Source: Escherichia phage vB_EcoS_VAH1
Sequence record: MK373792.1
DNA: 64,000 bases
Strand: one strand, 5' to 3'
In this document: positions 11,225 through 20,698 of the stretch, piece after piece
How positions within the stretch are numbered: the first letter of the stretch is position 1
Layout of the letters: every line of letters begins with the position of its first letter
Position numbers and translations under genes: made by a program
The notes under the pieces: generated by a model
What the model saw: only the letters and a program-made list of their open reading frames with translations
Told to the model about the DNA's origin: nothing
Database searches by the model: none

Positions 11225-13043
11225 GACACTAAAATTTAGTAACGTTATGTCTTACGGTAAGGACATCGTAATTCATTTCGATAAGAATCCAGTTACTCAA
11301 CTAATTGGTGGCAATGGGCTAGGGAAATCCACCATCGCTACTGTTATCGAGGAATTGTTTTATAACAAGAACTCACGTGGTATTAAGAAGGATGCTCTAT
11401 TCTCTTGGAATGCCCCTAAGAAAGAATATGATATGCACGCTTATTTCTCGAAAGATGATGATGAGTATGAGCTGCATAAAGTAGTTAAATCAACTGCTAA
11501 AGTAACGTTGATTAAGAATGGGGAAGATATTAGTGGACATACGGCAACCCAAACATATAAAATGATTGAAGAGATTATGGGCGGTGACTTTCAAACGTTC
11601 ACCAAACTGATTTATCAATCAGTGGGTTCCAACCTAGATTTTCTAAAAGCAACAGATGCAACACGTAAGGCTTTTCTTGTCAACTTGTTTAATCAAGAAC
11701 AATACAAAGAAATGTCGGAAACTATTAAGGCTGACCGTAAAGAAATAGCAAATACCTTAAATAATTTGCAGGGCCAAATGGCTGTAATTACGAAAATCCT
11801 TAATGGAAAAAATAATCTAGGAACTTTGCAGGAACCTATAGAAGTACCGGAGTTTGATGAAGAGCCATTAGCACAAGAACTTACTGAATCGAAAATTAAG
11901 GCGGCATTAGCCAAGTCTCAAGAGGCTAATATTACTAAGTTGCGTAATTTGGACAAAGCTGTACAAGTTGCCGAACAATCTTTCGAACCTTTCAAAAATT
12001 TGCCCGCGCCCACCGACCAAAGTGAAGAGATCTCGAGTGTTACGCGTGACCTAACGATTGTGACCTCACGTGCGAGCGAAGTTAAGAAACGTTATCAGAA
12101 GTTCAAGCAAGAGGCTTCAAATACTGAATGCCCTACTTGTGGCACTCATCTGGATACAACTGCTGCTCAAAAAGCAATGGATATGGCTAGAATAGAATAT
12201 GATCCTCTGTTCAAAGAGAAGCAATCTCTTGAAGCTAAGCTAGAACAGTTGAAGAAAGAACAACTTGAGTACGTTGCGTATACTAGAGCAAAGGATGCTC
12301 TTGATAAAGCGGTGGTAGCTAGAGACGAGTTCAAAAATTCAATGAGTGATGCTTCTTTTGAAGAACTCAATGTGCAAATCCTACAGGTGCAAATACGACA
12401 ATTAGAACAGGCAATCGCTGATGGACGTTCTAAGGTTGCAATTGCCAAAGAGCATAATGCAAATGTCGAATTAGCCAATGCAAAATATAAAGCAAAGCTA
12501 GAACAGATTGAGAAAGCTGAAGCAGAAATGTCTGAGATTACTTCCAAACTGAATGGAGTATCTGAAGCTGTTGCTGATCTCGATATTCTGATTGCTGCAT
12601 TGAAAAATCTGGTGGGATATAAGCTAGAACATAGTGTGAAAGTATTTGAAGAACTAATTAATAAATACCTTTCCATTATGACTGGTGGTAAATTCGCACT
12701 TGGATTCGAACTTGATGAAACGAAGTTACAAGTAGTAATCTTCAATGATGGAAACCGTACCAGTATGGAGAACTGCTCTACTGGTCAGCAAAGTCGAATT
12801 AATCTAGCAACCCTGTTAGCTATTCGAATGCTGTTAACATCTATTAGTAAAGTTAATATTAATCTTCTATTCCTTGATGAAGTAATTAGCTTTATTGATA
12901 CGAAAGGACTTGATACTCTCGTTGAATTATTAAATGAGGAAGAAAGTCTAAATTCTATCATTGTTTCTCATGGGCATACGCATCCATTAGCTCATAAGAT
13001 TACTGTCAAAAAAGATGCAGAAGGATTTTCCTACTTAGAATAA
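11205..13043 (+). CDS. SbcC/Rad50-like ATPase
   Basis: Walker A GGNGLGKST; long coiled coil with CPTCG zinc-hook-like motif; signature CSTGQQSRINLATLLA; Walker B LLFLDEV. Start set at ATG 11205, overlapping the sbcD-like stop. Confidence 0.85.
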   Translation: MSKITIKTLKFSNVMSYGKDIVIHFDKNPVTQLIGGNGLGKSTIATVIEELFYNKNSRGIKKDALFSWNAPKKEYDMHAYFSKDDDEYELHKVVKSTAKVTLIKNGEDISGHTATQTYKMIEEIMGGDFQTFTKLIYQSVGSNLDFLKATDATRKAFLVNLFNQEQYKEMSETIKADRKEIANTLNNLQGQMAVITKILNGKNNLGTLQEPIEVPEFDEEPLAQELTESKIKAALAKSQEANITKLRNLDKAVQVAEQSFEPFKNLPAPTDQSEEISSVTRDLTIVTSRASEVKKRYQKFKQEASNTECPTCGTHLDTTAAQKAMDMARIEYDPLFKEKQSLEAKLEQLKKEQLEYVAYTRAKDALDKAVVARDEFKNSMSDASFEELNVQILQVQIRQLEQAIADGRSKVAIAKEHNANVELANAKYKAKLEQIEKAEAEMSEITSKLNGVSEAVADLDILIAALKNLVGYKLEHSVKVFEELINKYLSIMTGGKFALGFELDETKLQVVIFNDGNRTSMENCSTGQQSRINLATLLAIRMLLTSISKVNINLLFLDEVISFIDTKGLDTLVELLNEEESLNSIIVSHGHTHPLAHKITVKKDAEGFSYLE

Positions 13044-13046
13044 AAC

Positions 13047-13529
13047 ATGGCTGTAGATAGTAGAGAGAAAGGTAAACGTGGTGAATATCAGGTAAGAGAT
13101 ATTCTACGTGAGCGTACAGGTCTTGAGTGGGAACGTGTTCCTGGCTCTGGTGCTTTTGGCCAGAGCCACGGACTGAAGGGTGACATCTACCTTCCACCAC
13201 AAAGCGGGCACATTAGTAAATACTGCTTCGAAGTTAAGTGGTATAAAGATGATAATATATCAAGTAATTTATTTAATGTTGGTGAATCCACTCTAGAGAA
13301 GTGGTGGCAGCAGTGCTCACGTGAAGGTGAGCAGATGAACTCCAAACCTGCATTAATATTCAAAAAAGACAGAGGACAGTGGTTAATAGCTTTGGATAGC
13401 TCAGACCCGATGGTTGACAACTTAATGAGTCGTACCCATATGGTGTTAAATAAGAAAGACATGGAAATCGTAATTGGTTTATTTGAGCCGTGGCTACATA
13501 ATGCATCTGTTGAGGACTTAATTAAATAA
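13047..13529 (+). CDS. putative PD-(D/E)XK nuclease-fold protein
   Basis: GDIYL...FEVKWYK resembles a restriction-endonuclease-like D...E.K motif; lies between the SbcC-like and flap endonuclease genes. Confidence 0.45.
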   Translation: MAVDSREKGKRGEYQVRDILRERTGLEWERVPGSGAFGQSHGLKGDIYLPPQSGHISKYCFEVKWYKDDNISSNLFNVGESTLEKWWQQCSREGEQMNSKPALIFKKDRGQWLIALDSSDPMVDNLMSRTHMVLNKKDMEIVIGLFEPWLHNASVEDLIK

Positions 13530-15075: not shown

Positions 15076-15116
15076 GAAAAAACCCCAGTGGATTTTGTCC
15101 ACTGGGGTTTCTTTTT
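15076..15116. terminator. bidirectional Rho-independent terminator between convergent early and late transcription units
   Basis: A-run, CCCCAGTGGA-TTTTG-TCCACTGGGG hairpin, T-run. Confidence 0.7.
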
Positions 15117-15117
15117 A

Positions 15118-18100
15118 CTATACCTTATTTGCTAGTAGAGAATTAACTACTAGGGTTAGGTCTGCAATTTGCTTTTTAAGATCAGATACTTCTGATTCTA
15201 GGGCTGAGATCCTGCTATCAGATTCTCTGCCTGCCTGTACTAATAGACCTGTTATAGCCGCATAGTCAACAGAATAGAAACGTTCCTCACCAACTAGTTG
15301 CTCACCAGTAAGTGTAGGCCCTTCAAGATCTGTATATTTTGTAAACCCACTTACAGCTTCAGGTAGAGCTTCCATTACTTCCTGAGCTATAACACCAGCG
15401 TAAGGTAGCCCATTTTCCTTAAGGGTATAAGTATAGCCTTTCATTTTACGCAATGATTCAGTGGCGTTTTGGATTTCCTCAATATTATCCTTCAGATCTC
15501 TATCGGATGACTGGGTAATGTTTGTTGCTTCAACTTTTCCATTAACATTAAAAACACGGGATCCATCAGAGCTTTGCTGAGCATAAAACAAATAACCATC
15601 TGATAGCTTACATTCAACAACAGAGGGCCTCCCAGTAGTATTACCCCATAGCAAGATAGTAGCACTTTTTGCGGCTGTCTGATTATTTTCGTAACTAAAC
15701 GTCCTACCATTACCCCGCCGTACAACCACTGCAGATCCATCAGCAAATATACCCCCATTATAATTAGGAGTTCTTAATGTGATATTATCGCTTACAGTTA
15801 GAGTACTGCTATTCATATCGTTATGTATGATAACATCCTTAGCAGCCCCACCTTTCCCCACATACCACAGTCTACCAGAATCTGTTCTACATGCTAAATA
15901 GCCAACTTGAGACGTATCGGTTCCGGTAAGTCTTATCGATAAGGCCTCACCAGCTTTAGTTATCGAAACAGGCACACCAAAATCAGCAAATTTATCTGTA
16001 ATTAATCTGTTCCATGCCCCAATAGTACCACCATCAATACTTCTAGCCCAGAATTTAGATCCACGACCTGCAAACTGGGTAGCATAATTACCGCTAAACC
16101 CTACATGGATACCACCATATACAACATTGTTTTCCGGAGTATTAACTTGACCAGCAATACCATAAAACTTATTGACAGTGTTATGTTGTGTATTCCAGTC
16201 TACACCAGTAGAAGATAGAATACCAGAAGGAGCTGAAAAAGTTCCTTCTTTATTGAAGTTAAAGAATTGATGGTTAATTCCTGCTGGATCTCTAACAATA
16301 ACCTGACCAGCATTTTCACTAGCTCTAAACTCTGCACCATATATTGTATCTCCCACTCTATACCTAGAATAGAAGGTGGCATTAGATACAGATATACCAT
16401 CAGCAATAACACCATTACCAGCCGCTATAGTACCACTAAAAGTAATCTTAGGAGCATATAAAGACAGTTCGTCCCCGACGTTCATACCGTTAGAAAGAAC
16501 TATACGCTCACCATTTCCTATGTAATAGTTCCCTTCCGTTGTTGCTTGATAGAAACCTATACGGTTTAAAGAAAAATCAAACATAGTAAGAACATCAGTT
16601 GAATCTGTTGCAGGATTAGCGGTCCCCCATGCGTAAGTTGTATTTTTATACGTAAAGTTTGACGTTGGTACAGTTACTTCACAGAATGCAGGAACACGTA
16701 GCTGAACAGGAAAACCACGGGCCTCAATATAAATTGCAACATATCTTTCAGCATCTTTGGAAGAAGAAAGAATACATTTCATTGCAATCTCACTTCTCGC
16801 ATAGTTATTGAAGTACCCGTACCCACCATCTTTACGATCACTCCAGCCCCCGCACCTAATAAAGCCATTGAAGCTACAACAGTTCATAGGGTCATTGCCA
16901 GTAGAGGATCGTGTTTTTATATCAATAAAAGCACCAGAGGCATATAGTGAACGGTAAGCAAGATCAATAATGACAGGATAATACTTTCCATCTTCAACAC
17001 CAGCAGGTGCATTAAGTGTTACCCATTCACCACCACCTATAGAGGGTATCTGGAGGTTATTTTTTGCTTCTGATATAGAGCGGCCACCGGTACCTCCTTG
17101 TCCTACTGCAAGAGGTATATATGATCTATTCTCTATATCATAAGCTCCCCAAAGTTTACCACTAGTAATAATGATTTTAGCATTATTACCTGGGTTTAAC
17201 AGTTGGGTCTCAGAGCTAAGCTGTACAAGCCTATTTACATCATCTATTCTAGCATTTTTTGTCCATAAAGGGCCGCTTTCTGGTCTCCAACGATATGAGT
17301 ATATTGCTTTAGTGGACGAGCCTACAAATAAGCCTGCAAATGAAGGTACACCATCAGTACCTGAAATAAATCCTGTAAGAACTGTTTCACCTACTGCTAT
17401 ACTAGGAAAACCTGTAGCCGTTTCATATATTCTTAGAAACCCCAGGAAATTGGAGGGATTACCAGAAATATCTGGACAATCCCTTGGGGAATCCCCAAGA
17501 CCGATAGAAGCTTTCATACCAGAAGCTACATTTTCAGCTTTAGTAGCAGATGCCGCCGCATTAGTTTCTGATGTTTTAGCATTGGTTTCTGATGCTTTAG
17601 CAGCATTAGCACTGTTAGCAGCAGCATTTTTACTATTATTAGCATTAGTTTCTGAAGTTTTAGCCGCAGCAGCCGAAGCACTGGCATTAGTTTCTGATGT
17701 TTTAGCTGCTGAAGCAGAAGCAGCCGCAGCAGTTTTGCTACTATTAGCATTGGTTTCTGAGGTTTTAGCTGCGGTTTCACTAGCCTTTGCTTTAGTTTCT
17801 GAAGTTTTAGCAGCAGTTTCACTAGCTTTTGCATTAGTTTCAGAAGTTTTTGCAGCTTTAGCGCTATTAGCAGAAGCAGTAGCAGAAGAAGCAGACTGAG
17901 TTGCAGACTGCTGAGAAGATGCCGCAGAAATTTCTGCTTCATTTTCAGAATCTTTGGCATTTAGCTCCGACTGTTTTGCATTAATTTCAGATTGCTTAGC
18001 TGCTGCAGCAGATGCTTTAGAAGACTCTATAGCAGAGACTAGCTCTCCTGCTGTAATAGAGCTGATTGTACTTCCCAGAACTATAGTATATTTAGGATAT

Positions 18101-18168
18101 TTACTTGCAGTTATACTATTCTGGTCCATAGTGACCATTTGCTGTAAAATTATTTTAGTTATAGCCAT
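15118..18168 (-). CDS. L-shaped tail fibre protein with C-terminal intramolecular chaperone (peptidase S74-like)
   Basis: 1016 aa; N-terminal low-complexity A/S/T/E/K repeats; C-terminal ...GYTYTLKENG...SDLKKQIADL resembles the auto-cleaving chaperone of phage fibres. Confidence 0.8.
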   Translation of the reverse strand: MAITKIILQQMVTMDQNSITASKYPKYTIVLGSTISSITAGELVSAIESSKASAAAAKQSEINAKQSELNAKDSENEAEISAASSQQSATQSASSATASANSAKAAKTSETNAKASETAAKTSETKAKASETAAKTSETNANSSKTAAAASASAAKTSETNASASAAAAKTSETNANNSKNAAANSANAAKASETNAKTSETNAAASATKAENVASGMKASIGLGDSPRDCPDISGNPSNFLGFLRIYETATGFPSIAVGETVLTGFISGTDGVPSFAGLFVGSSTKAIYSYRWRPESGPLWTKNARIDDVNRLVQLSSETQLLNPGNNAKIIITSGKLWGAYDIENRSYIPLAVGQGGTGGRSISEAKNNLQIPSIGGGEWVTLNAPAGVEDGKYYPVIIDLAYRSLYASGAFIDIKTRSSTGNDPMNCCSFNGFIRCGGWSDRKDGGYGYFNNYARSEIAMKCILSSSKDAERYVAIYIEARGFPVQLRVPAFCEVTVPTSNFTYKNTTYAWGTANPATDSTDVLTMFDFSLNRIGFYQATTEGNYYIGNGERIVLSNGMNVGDELSLYAPKITFSGTIAAGNGVIADGISVSNATFYSRYRVGDTIYGAEFRASENAGQVIVRDPAGINHQFFNFNKEGTFSAPSGILSSTGVDWNTQHNTVNKFYGIAGQVNTPENNVVYGGIHVGFSGNYATQFAGRGSKFWARSIDGGTIGAWNRLITDKFADFGVPVSITKAGEALSIRLTGTDTSQVGYLACRTDSGRLWYVGKGGAAKDVIIHNDMNSSTLTVSDNITLRTPNYNGGIFADGSAVVVRRGNGRTFSYENNQTAAKSATILLWGNTTGRPSVVECKLSDGYLFYAQQSSDGSRVFNVNGKVEATNITQSSDRDLKDNIEEIQNATESLRKMKGYTYTLKENGLPYAGVIAQEVMEALPEAVSGFTKYTDLEGPTLTGEQLVGEERFYSVDYAAITGLLVQAGRESDSRISALESEVSDLKKQIADLTLVVNSLLANKV
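17500..17930 (-). repeat. in-frame tandem nonapeptide-encoding repeats (AAKTSETNA-like) inside the tail fibre gene
   Basis: About 10 imperfect 27-bp units visible on the plus strand as GCATTAGTTTCTGATGTTTTAGC-like repeats. Confidence 0.6.
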
Positions 18169-18590
18169 TATTGAGTTACTCCATCACTAATATAAACTTT
18201 GCCTTCCATAATACGGAAAGAACTAGCAGCACTACCAACAGCTGTTCTAGTAATAATTACATCATAGTATCCAGCTAATCTCTGTCTAGGATTATATCTA
18301 TCCCTTTCTTTAGATGCTTTGGAAGCAATAGTTGTTACGGCACTAACAGGTAGACTTATAGATGCTACACCTTGTGTAGCATCTACAATAGATGTAGTAA
18401 AAGATGCTAAAGTTTCAGCTCCATCTTCTAAACTACTTTTAATACTTCCTCTAAGAGAGAAGCCAGTAAGATCTACTGGCTTAGATGTAGCAGGATAAAC
18501 ACTATCATCTACATCCATAAATTGCATAAGTAAACCATAAGGTACGTTTTCGTCTACTACTAAATCAATAACTCTATTTTCTGTACTCAT
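18168..18590 (-). CDS. tail collar-like protein
   Basis: 140-aa ORF between the fibre and baseplate genes; assignment by position only. Confidence 0.45.
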
Positions 18591-18595
18591 TATTT

Positions 18596-20698
18596 TTACC
18601 TTATATGGATATACCCGTTTTGCAGGTCTATCTTCATTTTGTAAGATCCCTCTGGATTAGAGGATAGTGCTGCTGCACGATCATATATAATATTTACACC
18701 AATTTGTGATAAGAAAGCATTATTAGCAACAATTTTACTAGCAGTTACCGTACCATTAACTATCATATCACCATGTAAAACCATTGCAGGGCTAGCCCAT
18801 GCTGAACCATTCCACTGCCTAGTAAACGCTGTTCCTGGTGCTCCACTTTTATACTCGGTTAATACATCATATTTAACAGGGCCAGTACCAAAGTTAGATG
18901 TAAAGAATGAATTAGCTTGTGAATCATTCCATGCTGTTAAATTAGCGATAGCAAGAGAATACATTCCAGGACCACGTTGTCCTGTATCTCCTGGCCTGCC
19001 ATCGGCACCTGGTTTACCGTCTGCTCCAGGCCTACCATCAACACCTTCTGTACCGCTCCATTGAACCACGTCTGACCAACTAGTTCCAGATACTAACTGA
19101 TTAGTAACAGGGTCTAAAGTACCTGTAGAACAGTAAATATTTTGAGTATTAGATGTTCTATTGGGTGGAGTCTTTGACCAACCTGAAGGTGGGTATGCAG
19201 GGCTTGTAGGTTTAGCAGGTAGTGAGGTTCCTAGAATATAGATAAATACTGTTTGCTTGCCCTGTATACCTGTCTGTATATCAATATCACCATTTGGTGT
19301 ACCAATTACAACCCCGCTAGAAATCCTTAATGTATCTCCATCATAACGTATATACTGAGTAGCATTACCAATATCTAGTTTTGGTTTAGCAGTAGCATTA
19401 TCCATGCCCATCCAGATACCAGATTTTGTATCGCCCCAAGTTTTACCCTGAGTATAGATTGCTGGGTTATCTTGACCGGTTAAATTAGTCATGACAAAGT
19501 TAGCAGCGTTAATAGTTTTAGTTATTACACTTCCATCAACGTTAACTATCTTTTTAATAGGGTCGAAAGATATTGGTGCTTTTCCTTCAGCATCTAGAAG
19601 ACCTATATTAATAGCACCGGTGGAGGCATCTATTAGGAAGGTTTGTTTCCAGGTAGATCCATCTTTAATTTTACCCTTAATGTACGCATAATTTACTTCG
19701 ATACCAGTTTCATTAACAAAACTATTGTCTAACGGTGTGCTCTCATTTAATATAAATGTCTGTACTGCGGAATCAGTAACATCTTGAGCGCCTGGTCCCC
19801 AGGCAATAGATGACACTTTAAATTTATGCTCTACTTTCCATGGGAATGATATAATTGTTGCCGACTGAGCAGCCCCCACGTTGATTTTTTGTGCTTTAGT
19901 CCATCCAGTTCTTGCAAACTCTGCCGAATCTATATAAGATAGAACGAACTCACGAACATTAGCACCTGCACCTCTATTCCAATCCCATTGTACACGCAAG
20001 TCATAGCGTTCTTTACCATCTGCAATACGCGCTGCTTTAAATTCAATATTAATAGGTGCAGTAGGGGGAACAAAATTATACTTAACTTCAAAAACAGTGG
20101 GATACTCATAGTATCCAGATGAATCAATAGTAACACCGTCTGGTAGGCTTATTTGACCAGAAATTCTTACTTTATAGAACCCGATTGGCACACCACCAAA
20201 CATAATAGTTGGCATTAGTGCACCAACGTAATATTTAACCCATGGATTATTGGCATTAGAATTATTTTTTAATTCTATAGTGCAATAATCGGCCTCCCCT
20301 GTAGTATCTATATAAACTATTGGTGCTCCAACACCAACATCTACTAGTTCTGACTCGCATCTAGCACCCATGATTTTGGGTGCTGATTTCATTTTAAAGG
20401 TTTGCTTATCAGATAGGTTAATTCCTATCTGTGCATTAAGGAGTTCAGAGTCTATTATGGAATCATAAAATGCACCCTGAACTTCATAAGTTGTTGTAGG
20501 TTTTAGATTATTAATAGTTACAGAGAAAGTATCAACACCCGTGAAGTCTCTACGAGTAATATTACTACCTTCCTTTAGCCAAAAAGATCTGCCTATAACG
20601 TCATAATCTGAGTAAATAGAATGCTGGATATACGCCAACGTATACCCAGTTAAGACGCTATTTAGGACCATTTTAGCTGGTGCATTATTTGAAATCAT
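18596..20698 (-). CDS. baseplate/central fibre protein with short collagen-like segment
   Basis: 700 aa; G-X-Y run [27 protein letters not shown]; position in the tail module. Confidence 0.6.

Follow-up and report, generated by a model that had tools for sequence, protein, structure and literature searches.

A T5-type L-shaped tail fibre gene in Escherichia phage vB_EcoS_VAH1, with a heptad-repeat stalk and a putative self-cleaving C-terminal chaperone

T5 pb1 and DT57C LtfA are the described fibres to which the fibre of Escherichia phage vB_EcoS_VAH1, a published Tequintavirus, is best compared. Fibres of this type are homotrimers, present in three copies on each virion, and bind a surface polysaccharide. 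T5 pb1 (Ltf, T5.133; PDB 4UW7 and 4UW8 for the C-terminus) is a fibre of 1396 aa that binds the polymannose O-antigen. Its chaperone has a Ser1264/Lys1269 pair, and the S1264A mutant blocks cleavage (PMC4690869). In DT57C LtfA, a helix begins at T40 and builds a three-helix coiled coil, and this stalk is resolved structurally for its first one or two heptads only (PMC10713586). The same cryo-EM paper is the source for the collar-anchor role assigned here to the first 39 residues. The DT57C fibre is branched, with LtfA and a second gene, LtfB. In-register deletions in ltf are already known in DT57C-like phages, and a one-residue deletion (A198) in LtfA's N-terminal part abolishes adsorption (PMC4728585).

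The VAH1 fibre gene was analysed in a window of 64,000 nucleotides (sequence record MK373792.1), and its locus has the same gene order as the phage T5 ltf locus (NC_005859). The gene adjoins the collar gene, directly downstream of it, in a pb3-pb4-collar-ltf tail-tip operon, and in the sequence TAATG its ATG overlaps the collar stop codon. A Pfam search of the neighbours identifies LtfC and PB4 domains, and the pb3-sized ORF matches weakly, below the cutoff. T5 has an annotated bidirectional terminator in a position equivalent to that of the terminator predicted on the other side of the VAH1 gene. In contrast to the branched fibre of DT57C, the window holds a single ltf followed by this terminator.

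The ORF list gives a minus-strand frame of 1016 aa, which is exactly the one claimed in an earlier note on this DNA, and the product is 100% identical to VAH1_00150, a protein labelled 'hypothetical protein' in the deposited record. The annotated PHROG matches are all tail proteins, tail fibres for the most part; an NCBIfam search of the fibre gave no match. Because of the synteny with T5, the N-terminal homology to LtfA and pb1, and the PHROG matches, the gene is, on sequence grounds, one for a T5-type (pb1/LtfA) L-shaped lateral tail fibre, which agrees with the tail fibre identity already proposed. As a side tail-fibre gene of a T5-like coliphage it is ordinary. VAH1_00150 can be re-annotated as an L-shaped tail fibre with an anchor, a coiled-coil stalk of 25 heptads, a linker, a distal receptor-binding region and a chaperone (Table 1), and the importance beyond annotation is small. 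It is very probable that the model as a whole is correct, with a collar anchor, a coiled-coil stalk, a linker, a beta-rich distal shaft, a self-cleaving chaperone and length changes in whole heptads.

Table 1. Features of the VAH1 ltf locus (positions in the 64,000-nucleotide window; residue numbers refer to the fibre)
Feature	Position	Strand	Remarks
Predicted bidirectional intrinsic terminator, between the convergent ltf and T5.132-like genes	15077..15113	.	-25.5 kcal/mol, z = -6.6
ltf gene, L-shaped (lateral) tail fibre	15118..18168	-	107.5 kDa precursor, 1016 aa
Putative intramolecular chaperone / Peptidase S74, aa 888-1016, 14.1 kDa	15121..15507	-	Pfam, motif, profile, Foldseek
Lys893 codon	15490-15492	-	motif checked by translation
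Ser888 codon	15505-15507	-	motif checked by translation
Distal shaft and presumed receptor-binding region, aa 375-887	15508..17046	-	predicted beta-rich (AF2)
QGGTGGRSISEAKNNLQI linker motif	17047..17100	-	holds the 690-bp deletion junction, 17084/17085
Conserved non-repetitive domain after the stalk, aa 225-356, ending in a WGAYD...PL motif	17101..17496	-	kept in the closest relatives and other T5-type fibres
Repeat block, 25 unbroken heptads, aa 43-217	17518..18042	-	probable trimeric alpha-helical coiled-coil stalk, ~26 nm
N-terminal anchor, aa 1-39, predicted to insert into the LtfC/p132 collar	18052..18168	-	DT57C LtfA match, T5 pb1 near-identity
LtfC/p132 collar protein, predicted attachment partner of the fibre	18168..18590	-	Pfam PF23926 LtfC, E = 4.6e-16

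The N-terminal residues are predicted to thread into the LtfC/p132 collar and so anchor the fibre to the tail tip. DT57C LtfA (PDB 8HQZ chain d) is the best solved sequence relative of the fibre; it matches VAH1 aa 4-253 (8hqz_d, phmmer, E = 5e-40), and its middle regions differ from those of VAH1. T5 pb1 is 73% identical to VAH1 over aa 1-212 (BLASTP, E = 2e-50), and the anchor region is almost identical in the two.

The unit of the repeat block that follows the anchor is 21 bp, or 7 aa, and there are also higher-order units of 42 and 105 bp. The heptad consensus is AxxSxxx, with position a occupied by Ala in 20 of the 25 copies and position d by Ser in 23. Protein autocorrelation at lag 7 is 0.46, compared with 0.18 +/- 0.03 in shuffles (z = +10), so the in-frame repeats described in the earlier note are real and far above chance. 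The 27-bp period given there is wrong, and the block is larger than the 'about ten units' placed at 17500-17930. The periods given by Tandem Repeats Finder for the block are 21, 42, 63 and 105 bp, without one of 27 bp, and the direct repeats are spaced by 63, 42, 21, 42, 42, 21, 21 and 147 bp. DNA autocorrelation has peaks at 42, 105, 63 and 21 bp and is at background level at 27 bp, and the protein autocorrelation at lag 9 is below chance (z = -2.6). The 27-bp reading is explained by the 9-mer AAKTSETNA, of which there are four copies (aa 105, 133, 154 and 168) that lie 28, 21 and 14 aa apart, in each case a multiple of 7. ORFs in other frames of the block (17171-17899 on the plus strand and 17526-17960 on the minus strand) were taken to be by-products of low-complexity sequence and not genes.

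The VAH1 block shares its heptad register with the T5 pb1 block, which has about 24 heptads compared with 25 in VAH1, and it follows directly, with no break of register, on the three-helix coiled coil of the DT57C LtfA structure. The features expected of a coiled coil are present, namely unbroken heptads, consistent a and d positions and an absence of proline. Over residues 40/43-217, three parallel alpha-helices would wind into a coiled coil around a small Ala/Ser core, giving a thin stalk of about 26 nm as the proximal arm of the L. The core is of Ala and Ser, not Leu, Ile or Val, and is weakly hydrophobic. Past about residue 60 the coiled-coil state is probable by analogy with LtfA, and the stalk past the resolved heptads may be less tight or less rigid than a canonical coiled coil. 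The earlier note did not identify the block as a coiled-coil stalk.

Stalk length varies in the family, with 11 to 41 heptads in related fibres. Among 36 related fibres (cluster representatives) with a common downstream junction, the length is identical in 31, and the differences in the other five (-14, -98, -105, +91 and +105 aa) can all be divided by 7. The comparison of repeat number among relatives that had been proposed earlier thus finds a number that is not invariant. Three of the four closest relatives have the same stalk length as VAH1, and the Stp1 stalk is shorter by exactly one 42-bp (14-aa) unit, or two heptads. Large unit duplications or deletions are found in other family members. 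An IMG/VR scan with aa 1-100 gave 5 loci only, T5 among them, and widened the sample little. Recombination between the degenerate 21-bp units may change stalk length over evolutionary time, and since the helix has to stay in register, only whole-heptad changes would persist. The rule from this survey, that stalk length changes in whole heptads only, agrees with the loss of function caused by deletion of a single residue in DT57C LtfA; the A198 position aligns with the VAH1 heptad block.

The largest length change in the gene lies outside the repeat block. Residues 225-356, which have no Pfam match, and the QGGTG...NL linker are predicted to join the stalk to the distal shaft, and inside this linker motif VAH1 lacks 230 aa (690 bp, in frame) that are present in its four closest relatives. 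This difference was absent from the earlier note. The fibres of Salmonella phage Kenya-K16, Escherichia phage JLBYU43, phage NBSal005 and Salmonella phage Stp1 share the modules of VAH1 and have 88-98% aa identity to it over aligned positions, but are 1236-1249 aa long, about 230 aa more. The relatives have three GGTG linker motifs, VAH1 has one hybrid copy, and the linker copies have the common microhomology CAAGGAGGTAC.GG. Since the multi-module shaft occurs in several diverged lineages, among them fibres that have other tips, the sequences favour a deletion in VAH1 over an insertion in the relatives. No long-form relative has the junction codons GGC CGC, so the immediate parent is not among the sampled genomes, and these data give the event no date. 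An engineered junction was considered in view of the GGCCGC at the site; the full restriction site and vector sequence are both absent. Larger length changes in such fibres may occur at QGGTG linkers, the 230-aa deletion being an example.

The repeat block has been read here as a coiled-coil stalk that changes length slowly. It is highly unlikely that it is instead a disordered or non-helical flexible linker, with the sevenfold periodicity merely a trace of duplication, since the 175 residues contain no Pro and a single Gly, and the strict a/d pattern is kept through 25 heptads even between units of differing sequence. A flexible linker could have the low-complexity composition of the block (32% Ala, 20% Ser) and its weakly hydrophobic core, and no homologue is solved past about residue 60; but it would not account for a block that runs on in register from the solved LtfA coiled coil, for family indels confined to multiples of 7, or for the deleterious single-residue deletion in DT57C (PMC4728585). 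Most improbable is a hypermutable contingency tract, in which frequent replication slippage would cause rapid switching of host range or adsorption in the population. Repeats prone to slippage are long and near-perfect in DNA and differ in copy number between close relatives, and the block is not of this kind. Its DNA repeats are degenerate, with Tandem Repeats Finder unit matches of 51-91%, scrambled synonymous codons and a longest exact repeat of 23 bp, which makes frequent slippage unlikely. The units are tandem and in frame, and the Stp1 difference of exactly one unit and the large duplications or deletions elsewhere in the family would suit such a tract; against this, the length is equal in most representatives and close relatives, and 21-bp units allow no frameshifting on/off switch. 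Of the expansion and contraction suggested in the earlier note, the variation among relatives holds as slow evolutionary change, and rapid slippage does not. As judged from these sequences, length change in the stalk is slow and recombinational.

The 230-aa shortening raises the separate question of whether the VAH1 fibre is a natural form. It could be a laboratory deletion that arose on a rough host on which side fibres are dispensable, leaving a fibre that is possibly poorly functional. Passage on E. coli C600 does yield, and select for, in-register ltf deletions made by recombination, with fibre-less mutants reaching about 30% of clones (PMC4728585), and VAH1 is the sole short form with such an anchor and receptor-binding region in the 120 best cluster representatives. 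A passage artefact is nevertheless unlikely, as the junction is in frame and lies at a natural module boundary, the receptor-binding region and the chaperone are intact, and the DNA on both sides of the junction shows 87-94% identity to the long-form relatives, none of which has the junction codons. More tentatively, and less likely than not, the QGGTG...NL linkers and the heptads may be in-register recombination points for tuning fibre length and swapping tips, with VAH1 a functional, natural short-arm variant of altered reach or host range and not an artefact of passage. If true, this would be one more example and not a principle, as module exchange at conserved motifs is already established.

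Beyond the linker, aa 375-887 would form a beta-rich distal shaft and tip that presumably binds a surface polysaccharide. The region is about 38% identical to Vequintavirus fibres, and the 3' part of ltf has 99-100% DNA identity to Salmonella phage Kenya-K16. The AF2 model of aa 357-1016 is of mediocre confidence (mean pLDDT 69). A fold search with it gave no match at E <= 0.001; all that it returned was weak similarity to T4 gp34 and pyocin fibres (E > 0.003). The region from the stalk to the chaperone is unrelated in sequence between T5 and VAH1, and T5 pb1 is without GGTG linker motifs.

The C-terminus resembles Peptidase S74, as the earlier note had proposed. Pfam PF13884 (Peptidase_S74) scores 54 bits (E = 2e-14) on aa 888-939, for a cut-off of 22, and the catalytic motif S888-D-R-D-L-K893 places a Ser-Lys pair five residues apart. 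S888, D889 and K893 are invariant in an alignment of 51 sequences, and S888 and K893 in one of 54 sequences as well. In the AF2 model of aa 801-1016 (pLDDT 79.7), a beta-hairpin at model residues 139-167 leads into a long C-terminal helix at 169-215. This agrees with the known chaperone fold, in which a mixed alpha/beta body is combined with a long hairpin and a trimerising helix at the C-terminus. All eight Foldseek matches with E <= 0.001 for this model are chaperone domains from 7dc3 and 3gw6 (top matches at probability 1.00, E about 1e-4), with TM-scores that are modest (0.3-0.58) for a query modelled as a monomer.

The chaperone sequence profile matches the MyRF ICA (E = 1.5e-14), DT57C LtfA (E = 4e-13), S16 gp37 and phi29 gp12. 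It did not recover T5 pb1 (4UW8) or the chaperone of the K1F endosialidase endoNF (3GW6) at E <= 1, and a pairwise BLASTP of the VAH1 C-terminus with that of T5 gave nothing significant; the link to these two structures is made by Pfam, the motif and Foldseek. T5 pb1 and VAH1 both carry the S-D-x-x-L-K motif, but differ in subtype, with SDRDLK and 129 aa in VAH1 and SDARLK and 133 aa in T5. VAH1 shares its Pfam family with the endoNF chaperone and the MyRF ICA (7DC3), although the passengers differ, being a sialidase tailspike in endoNF, a eukaryotic transcription factor in MyRF and a fibre in VAH1. The sequence and the predicted fold support a self-cleaving chaperone. This domain would drive trimerisation and folding of the distal part and then cut itself off before Ser888 by means of the Ser888/Lys893 pair. 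The predicted products are a mature fibre of 887 aa (93.4 kDa) and a released 14.1-kDa fragment. Useful boundaries for host-range engineering of T5-like phages are the heptad register, the QGGTG junctions and the last 30 residues, which are conserved.

Side tail fibres of E. coli lambdoid prophages, annotated as 'prophage tail fiber N-terminal domain and S74 family endopeptidase-containing protein', are 43% identical to the VAH1 fibre across 86% of the query. They share with it an Ala/Ser heptad region, one GGTG linker, the distal region and the chaperone, but have the attachment domain PF08400 instead of the T5-type collar anchor.

The ltf gene of vB_EcoS_VAH1, a Tequintavirus from budgie droppings (PMC6563267), encodes an L-shaped tail fibre of the T5 type, with a stalk of heptads that is probably a coiled coil and an intramolecular chaperone of the Peptidase S74 family, and is an ordinary gene. 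Stalk and chaperone have both already been described for T5 pb1 and DT57C LtfA, and the sole local peculiarity of the VAH1 fibre lies in 230 aa missing, in frame, at a linker motif. An earlier note had placed the gene correctly and broadly recognized the fibre, but was mistaken on the period of the repeats and on the slippage that it implied, and missed the shortening. The product is the Escherichia phage vB_EcoS_VAH1 'hypothetical protein VAH1_00150', at 100% identity. The start codon of ltf (ATG) overlaps with the upstream gene's stop codon (TAATG). The genes around ltf are in exactly the same order as in phage T5, which has an annotated bidirectional terminator at the equivalent position; the strong one in the window has a 16-bp stem (-25.5 kcal/mol, z = -6.6). 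The pb4 homologue contains a short collagen-like G-x-x run at about aa 549-576, with a weak Pfam Collagen match below the cut-off. Escherichia phage JLBYU43 carries an HNH endonuclease gene between its D13 and D14 homologues, an insert found neither in the window nor in the other relatives examined.

Features of the ltf region and of the loci compared (window coordinates unless a locus, L, is named; L001-L004 are the four closest relatives, with L001 Salmonella phage Kenya-K16 and L002 JLBYU43)
Feature	Location	Strand	Remarks
ltf	15118-18168	minus	one ORF, 1016 aa
ltf 3' part	15118-16670	minus	
ltf 5' part	16670-18168	minus	
Hybrid linker	17047-17100	minus	
Deletion junction	17084/17085		within or just past QGGTG codons
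C-terminal residues, aa 987-1016	15121-15210	minus	
Other-frame ORF	17171-17899	plus	242 aa
Other-frame ORF	17526-17960	minus	144 aa
LtfC-type collar protein gene	upstream of ltf	as ltf	Pfam PF23926
pb4 straight fibre gene	18596-20698, upstream of ltf	minus	four PB4 Pfam domains
pb3-sized ORF	upstream of ltf	as ltf	949 aa; Phage-tail_3 match weak, below cutoff
Bidirectional terminator	15077-15113, between ltf and T5.132-like gene	both	hairpin, T-runs on both strands
Genes for T5.132-like protein, dUTPase, flap endonuclease	downstream, past terminator	convergent to ltf	
Relatives' fibre loci	L001:2996-6736, L002:2993-6742, L003:2993-6736, L004:2993-6703		
HNH endonuclease gene	L002:416-925		corresponds to ~13043-13047

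The repeat block is built on heptads. Tandem Repeats Finder gave periods of 21, 42, 63 and 105 bp but no 27-bp period, copies of the direct repeats are spaced by 63, 42, 21, 42, 42, 21, 21 and 147 bp, and all pairs of exact 15-mers or longer are separated by multiples of 21 bp. Protein autocorrelation reaches 0.46 at lag 7, vs 0.18 +/- 0.03 in shuffles (z = +10), and falls below chance at lag 9 (z = -2.6). The in-frame repeats of the earlier note are thus real, but their 27-bp period is not. Its AAKTSETNA motif is present in four copies, but these lie 28, 21 and 14 residues apart and do not form a 27-bp unit. Residues 43-217 form 25 uninterrupted, proline-free heptads, with Ala at the first position in 20 and Ser at the fourth in 23. 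The two long ORFs that cross the block in other frames have Leu/Ala-rich products of low complexity. Most likely they simply reflect the composition of the repeats and are not genes.

Over its first 253 residues the protein matches DT57C LtfA (PDB 8hqz_d, E = 5e-40), and T5 pb1 is 73% identical over aa 1-212 and shares the heptad register. By cryo-EM, the DT57C LtfA N-terminus is threaded into the LtfC collar, and a long helix from T40 leads into a three-helix coiled coil directed radially outwards (PMC10713586). Since the repeat block continues this helix in register, it is read as the fibre's coiled-coil stalk, by inference past the first heptads, with a length of about 26 nm (175 residues, each adding roughly 0.148 nm). 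Its Ala/Ser core is unusually polar.

Heptad number varies among relatives, but slowly. The fibres of the four closest relatives (Kenya-K16, JLBYU43, NBSal005 and Stp1) have 88-98% amino-acid identity to that of VAH1, and the heptad count is unchanged in three; from Stp1 exactly one unit of 42 bp (14 aa) is missing. Under a slightly more generous scoring rule, 33 of 45 cluster representatives with a T5-type anchor, VAH1 included, have 26 heptads, and the remainder have 39, 24, 22, 12, 11 or 41. By this rule T5 has 23, and an IMG/VR locus, apparently phage SP01, has 39. Among the 36 of these 45 representatives that have a downstream junction in common, stalk length is the same in 31 and differs in five by -14, -98, -105, +91 and +105 residues, each a multiple of 7. 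Repeat number therefore does differ among related phages, as proposed earlier. The units are degenerate, with scrambled synonymous codons and a longest exact DNA repeat of 23 bp, which argues against the block being a slippage hot spot. A spontaneous DT57C mutant lost adsorption with the loss of one residue, A198 (PMC4728585). In the LtfA alignment this residue lies in the Ala/Ser-rich stalk region opposite the VAH1 heptad block, in keeping with a strict register requirement.

The fibres of the four closest relatives are 1236-1249 aa long, and 230 of their residues (690 bp) are missing, in frame, from that of VAH1. Each of these relatives has three copies of the linker '...WGxYD...PL..QGGTG..S.SEA..NL', and VAH1 has one hybrid copy, with the upstream side of the first motif and the downstream side of the third. 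The copies have CAAGGAGGTAC.GG in common at the deletion junction. The number of GGTG motifs ranges from one to four in other T5-type fibres and is one in the side fibres of prophages. Among the 120 best cluster representatives, only VAH1 combines this short form with its anchor and tip. The shortening may be of laboratory origin, since DT57C-like phages show in-register ltf deletions and repeat copy-number changes, some passage-selected on rough hosts (PMC4728585). Neither the junction codons nor the flanks (87-94% identity) correspond to those of any long-form genome sampled, so none of these is the immediate parent.

The 3' part of ltf, from about nt 1500 onward, has 99-100% DNA identity to Kenya-K16 and covers the distal shaft, tip and chaperone, vs 87-96% for the 5' part. 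This suggests that phages of E. coli and Salmonella recently exchanged the distal half. The L-shaped tail-fibre gene was exchanged among the T5-like isolates of the VAH1 study (PMC6563267). In the distal region, identity is about 38% with Vequintavirus fibres and 43% with side fibres of E. coli prophages. A sequence search of the PDB found no solved relative of this region, and the larger AF2 model (pLDDT 69) gave no more than weak, fibre-like fold matches.

The C-terminus resembles an S74 chaperone, as the earlier note had it (Pfam Peptidase_S74, aa 888-939, 54 bits vs a cut-off of 22). The S888-D-R-D-L-K893 segment has the spacing of T5 Ser1264/Lys1269. In T5, S1264A blocks auto-cleavage and the serine departs with the chaperone (PMC4690869). 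Two alignments, of 54 and 51 sequences, show no variation at S888 and K893; D889 is likewise invariant in that of 51. The domain profile matches chaperone-type domains of solved structure, namely MyRF ICA 7dc3 (1.5e-14), the DT57C LtfA C-terminus (4.4e-13), S16 gp37 6f45 (7e-11) and phi29 gp12 3gud (6e-6). Modeled with AF2 (pLDDT 79.7), aa 801-1016 form a mixed alpha/beta body with a long beta-hairpin and a 47-residue terminal helix, and all eight Foldseek matches at E <= 0.001 are to MyRF ICA or to the intramolecular chaperone of endosialidase, 3gw6. The predicted cleavage products would be aa 1-887 (93.4 kDa) and aa 888-1016 (14.1 kDa). Even T5-like fibres whose chaperones otherwise belong to another sequence subtype have almost the same last 30 or so residues, I[ST]ALESEVSDLKKQIADLTLVVNSLLANK, which may serve as a conserved 3' anchor for recombination when fibre tips are swapped.
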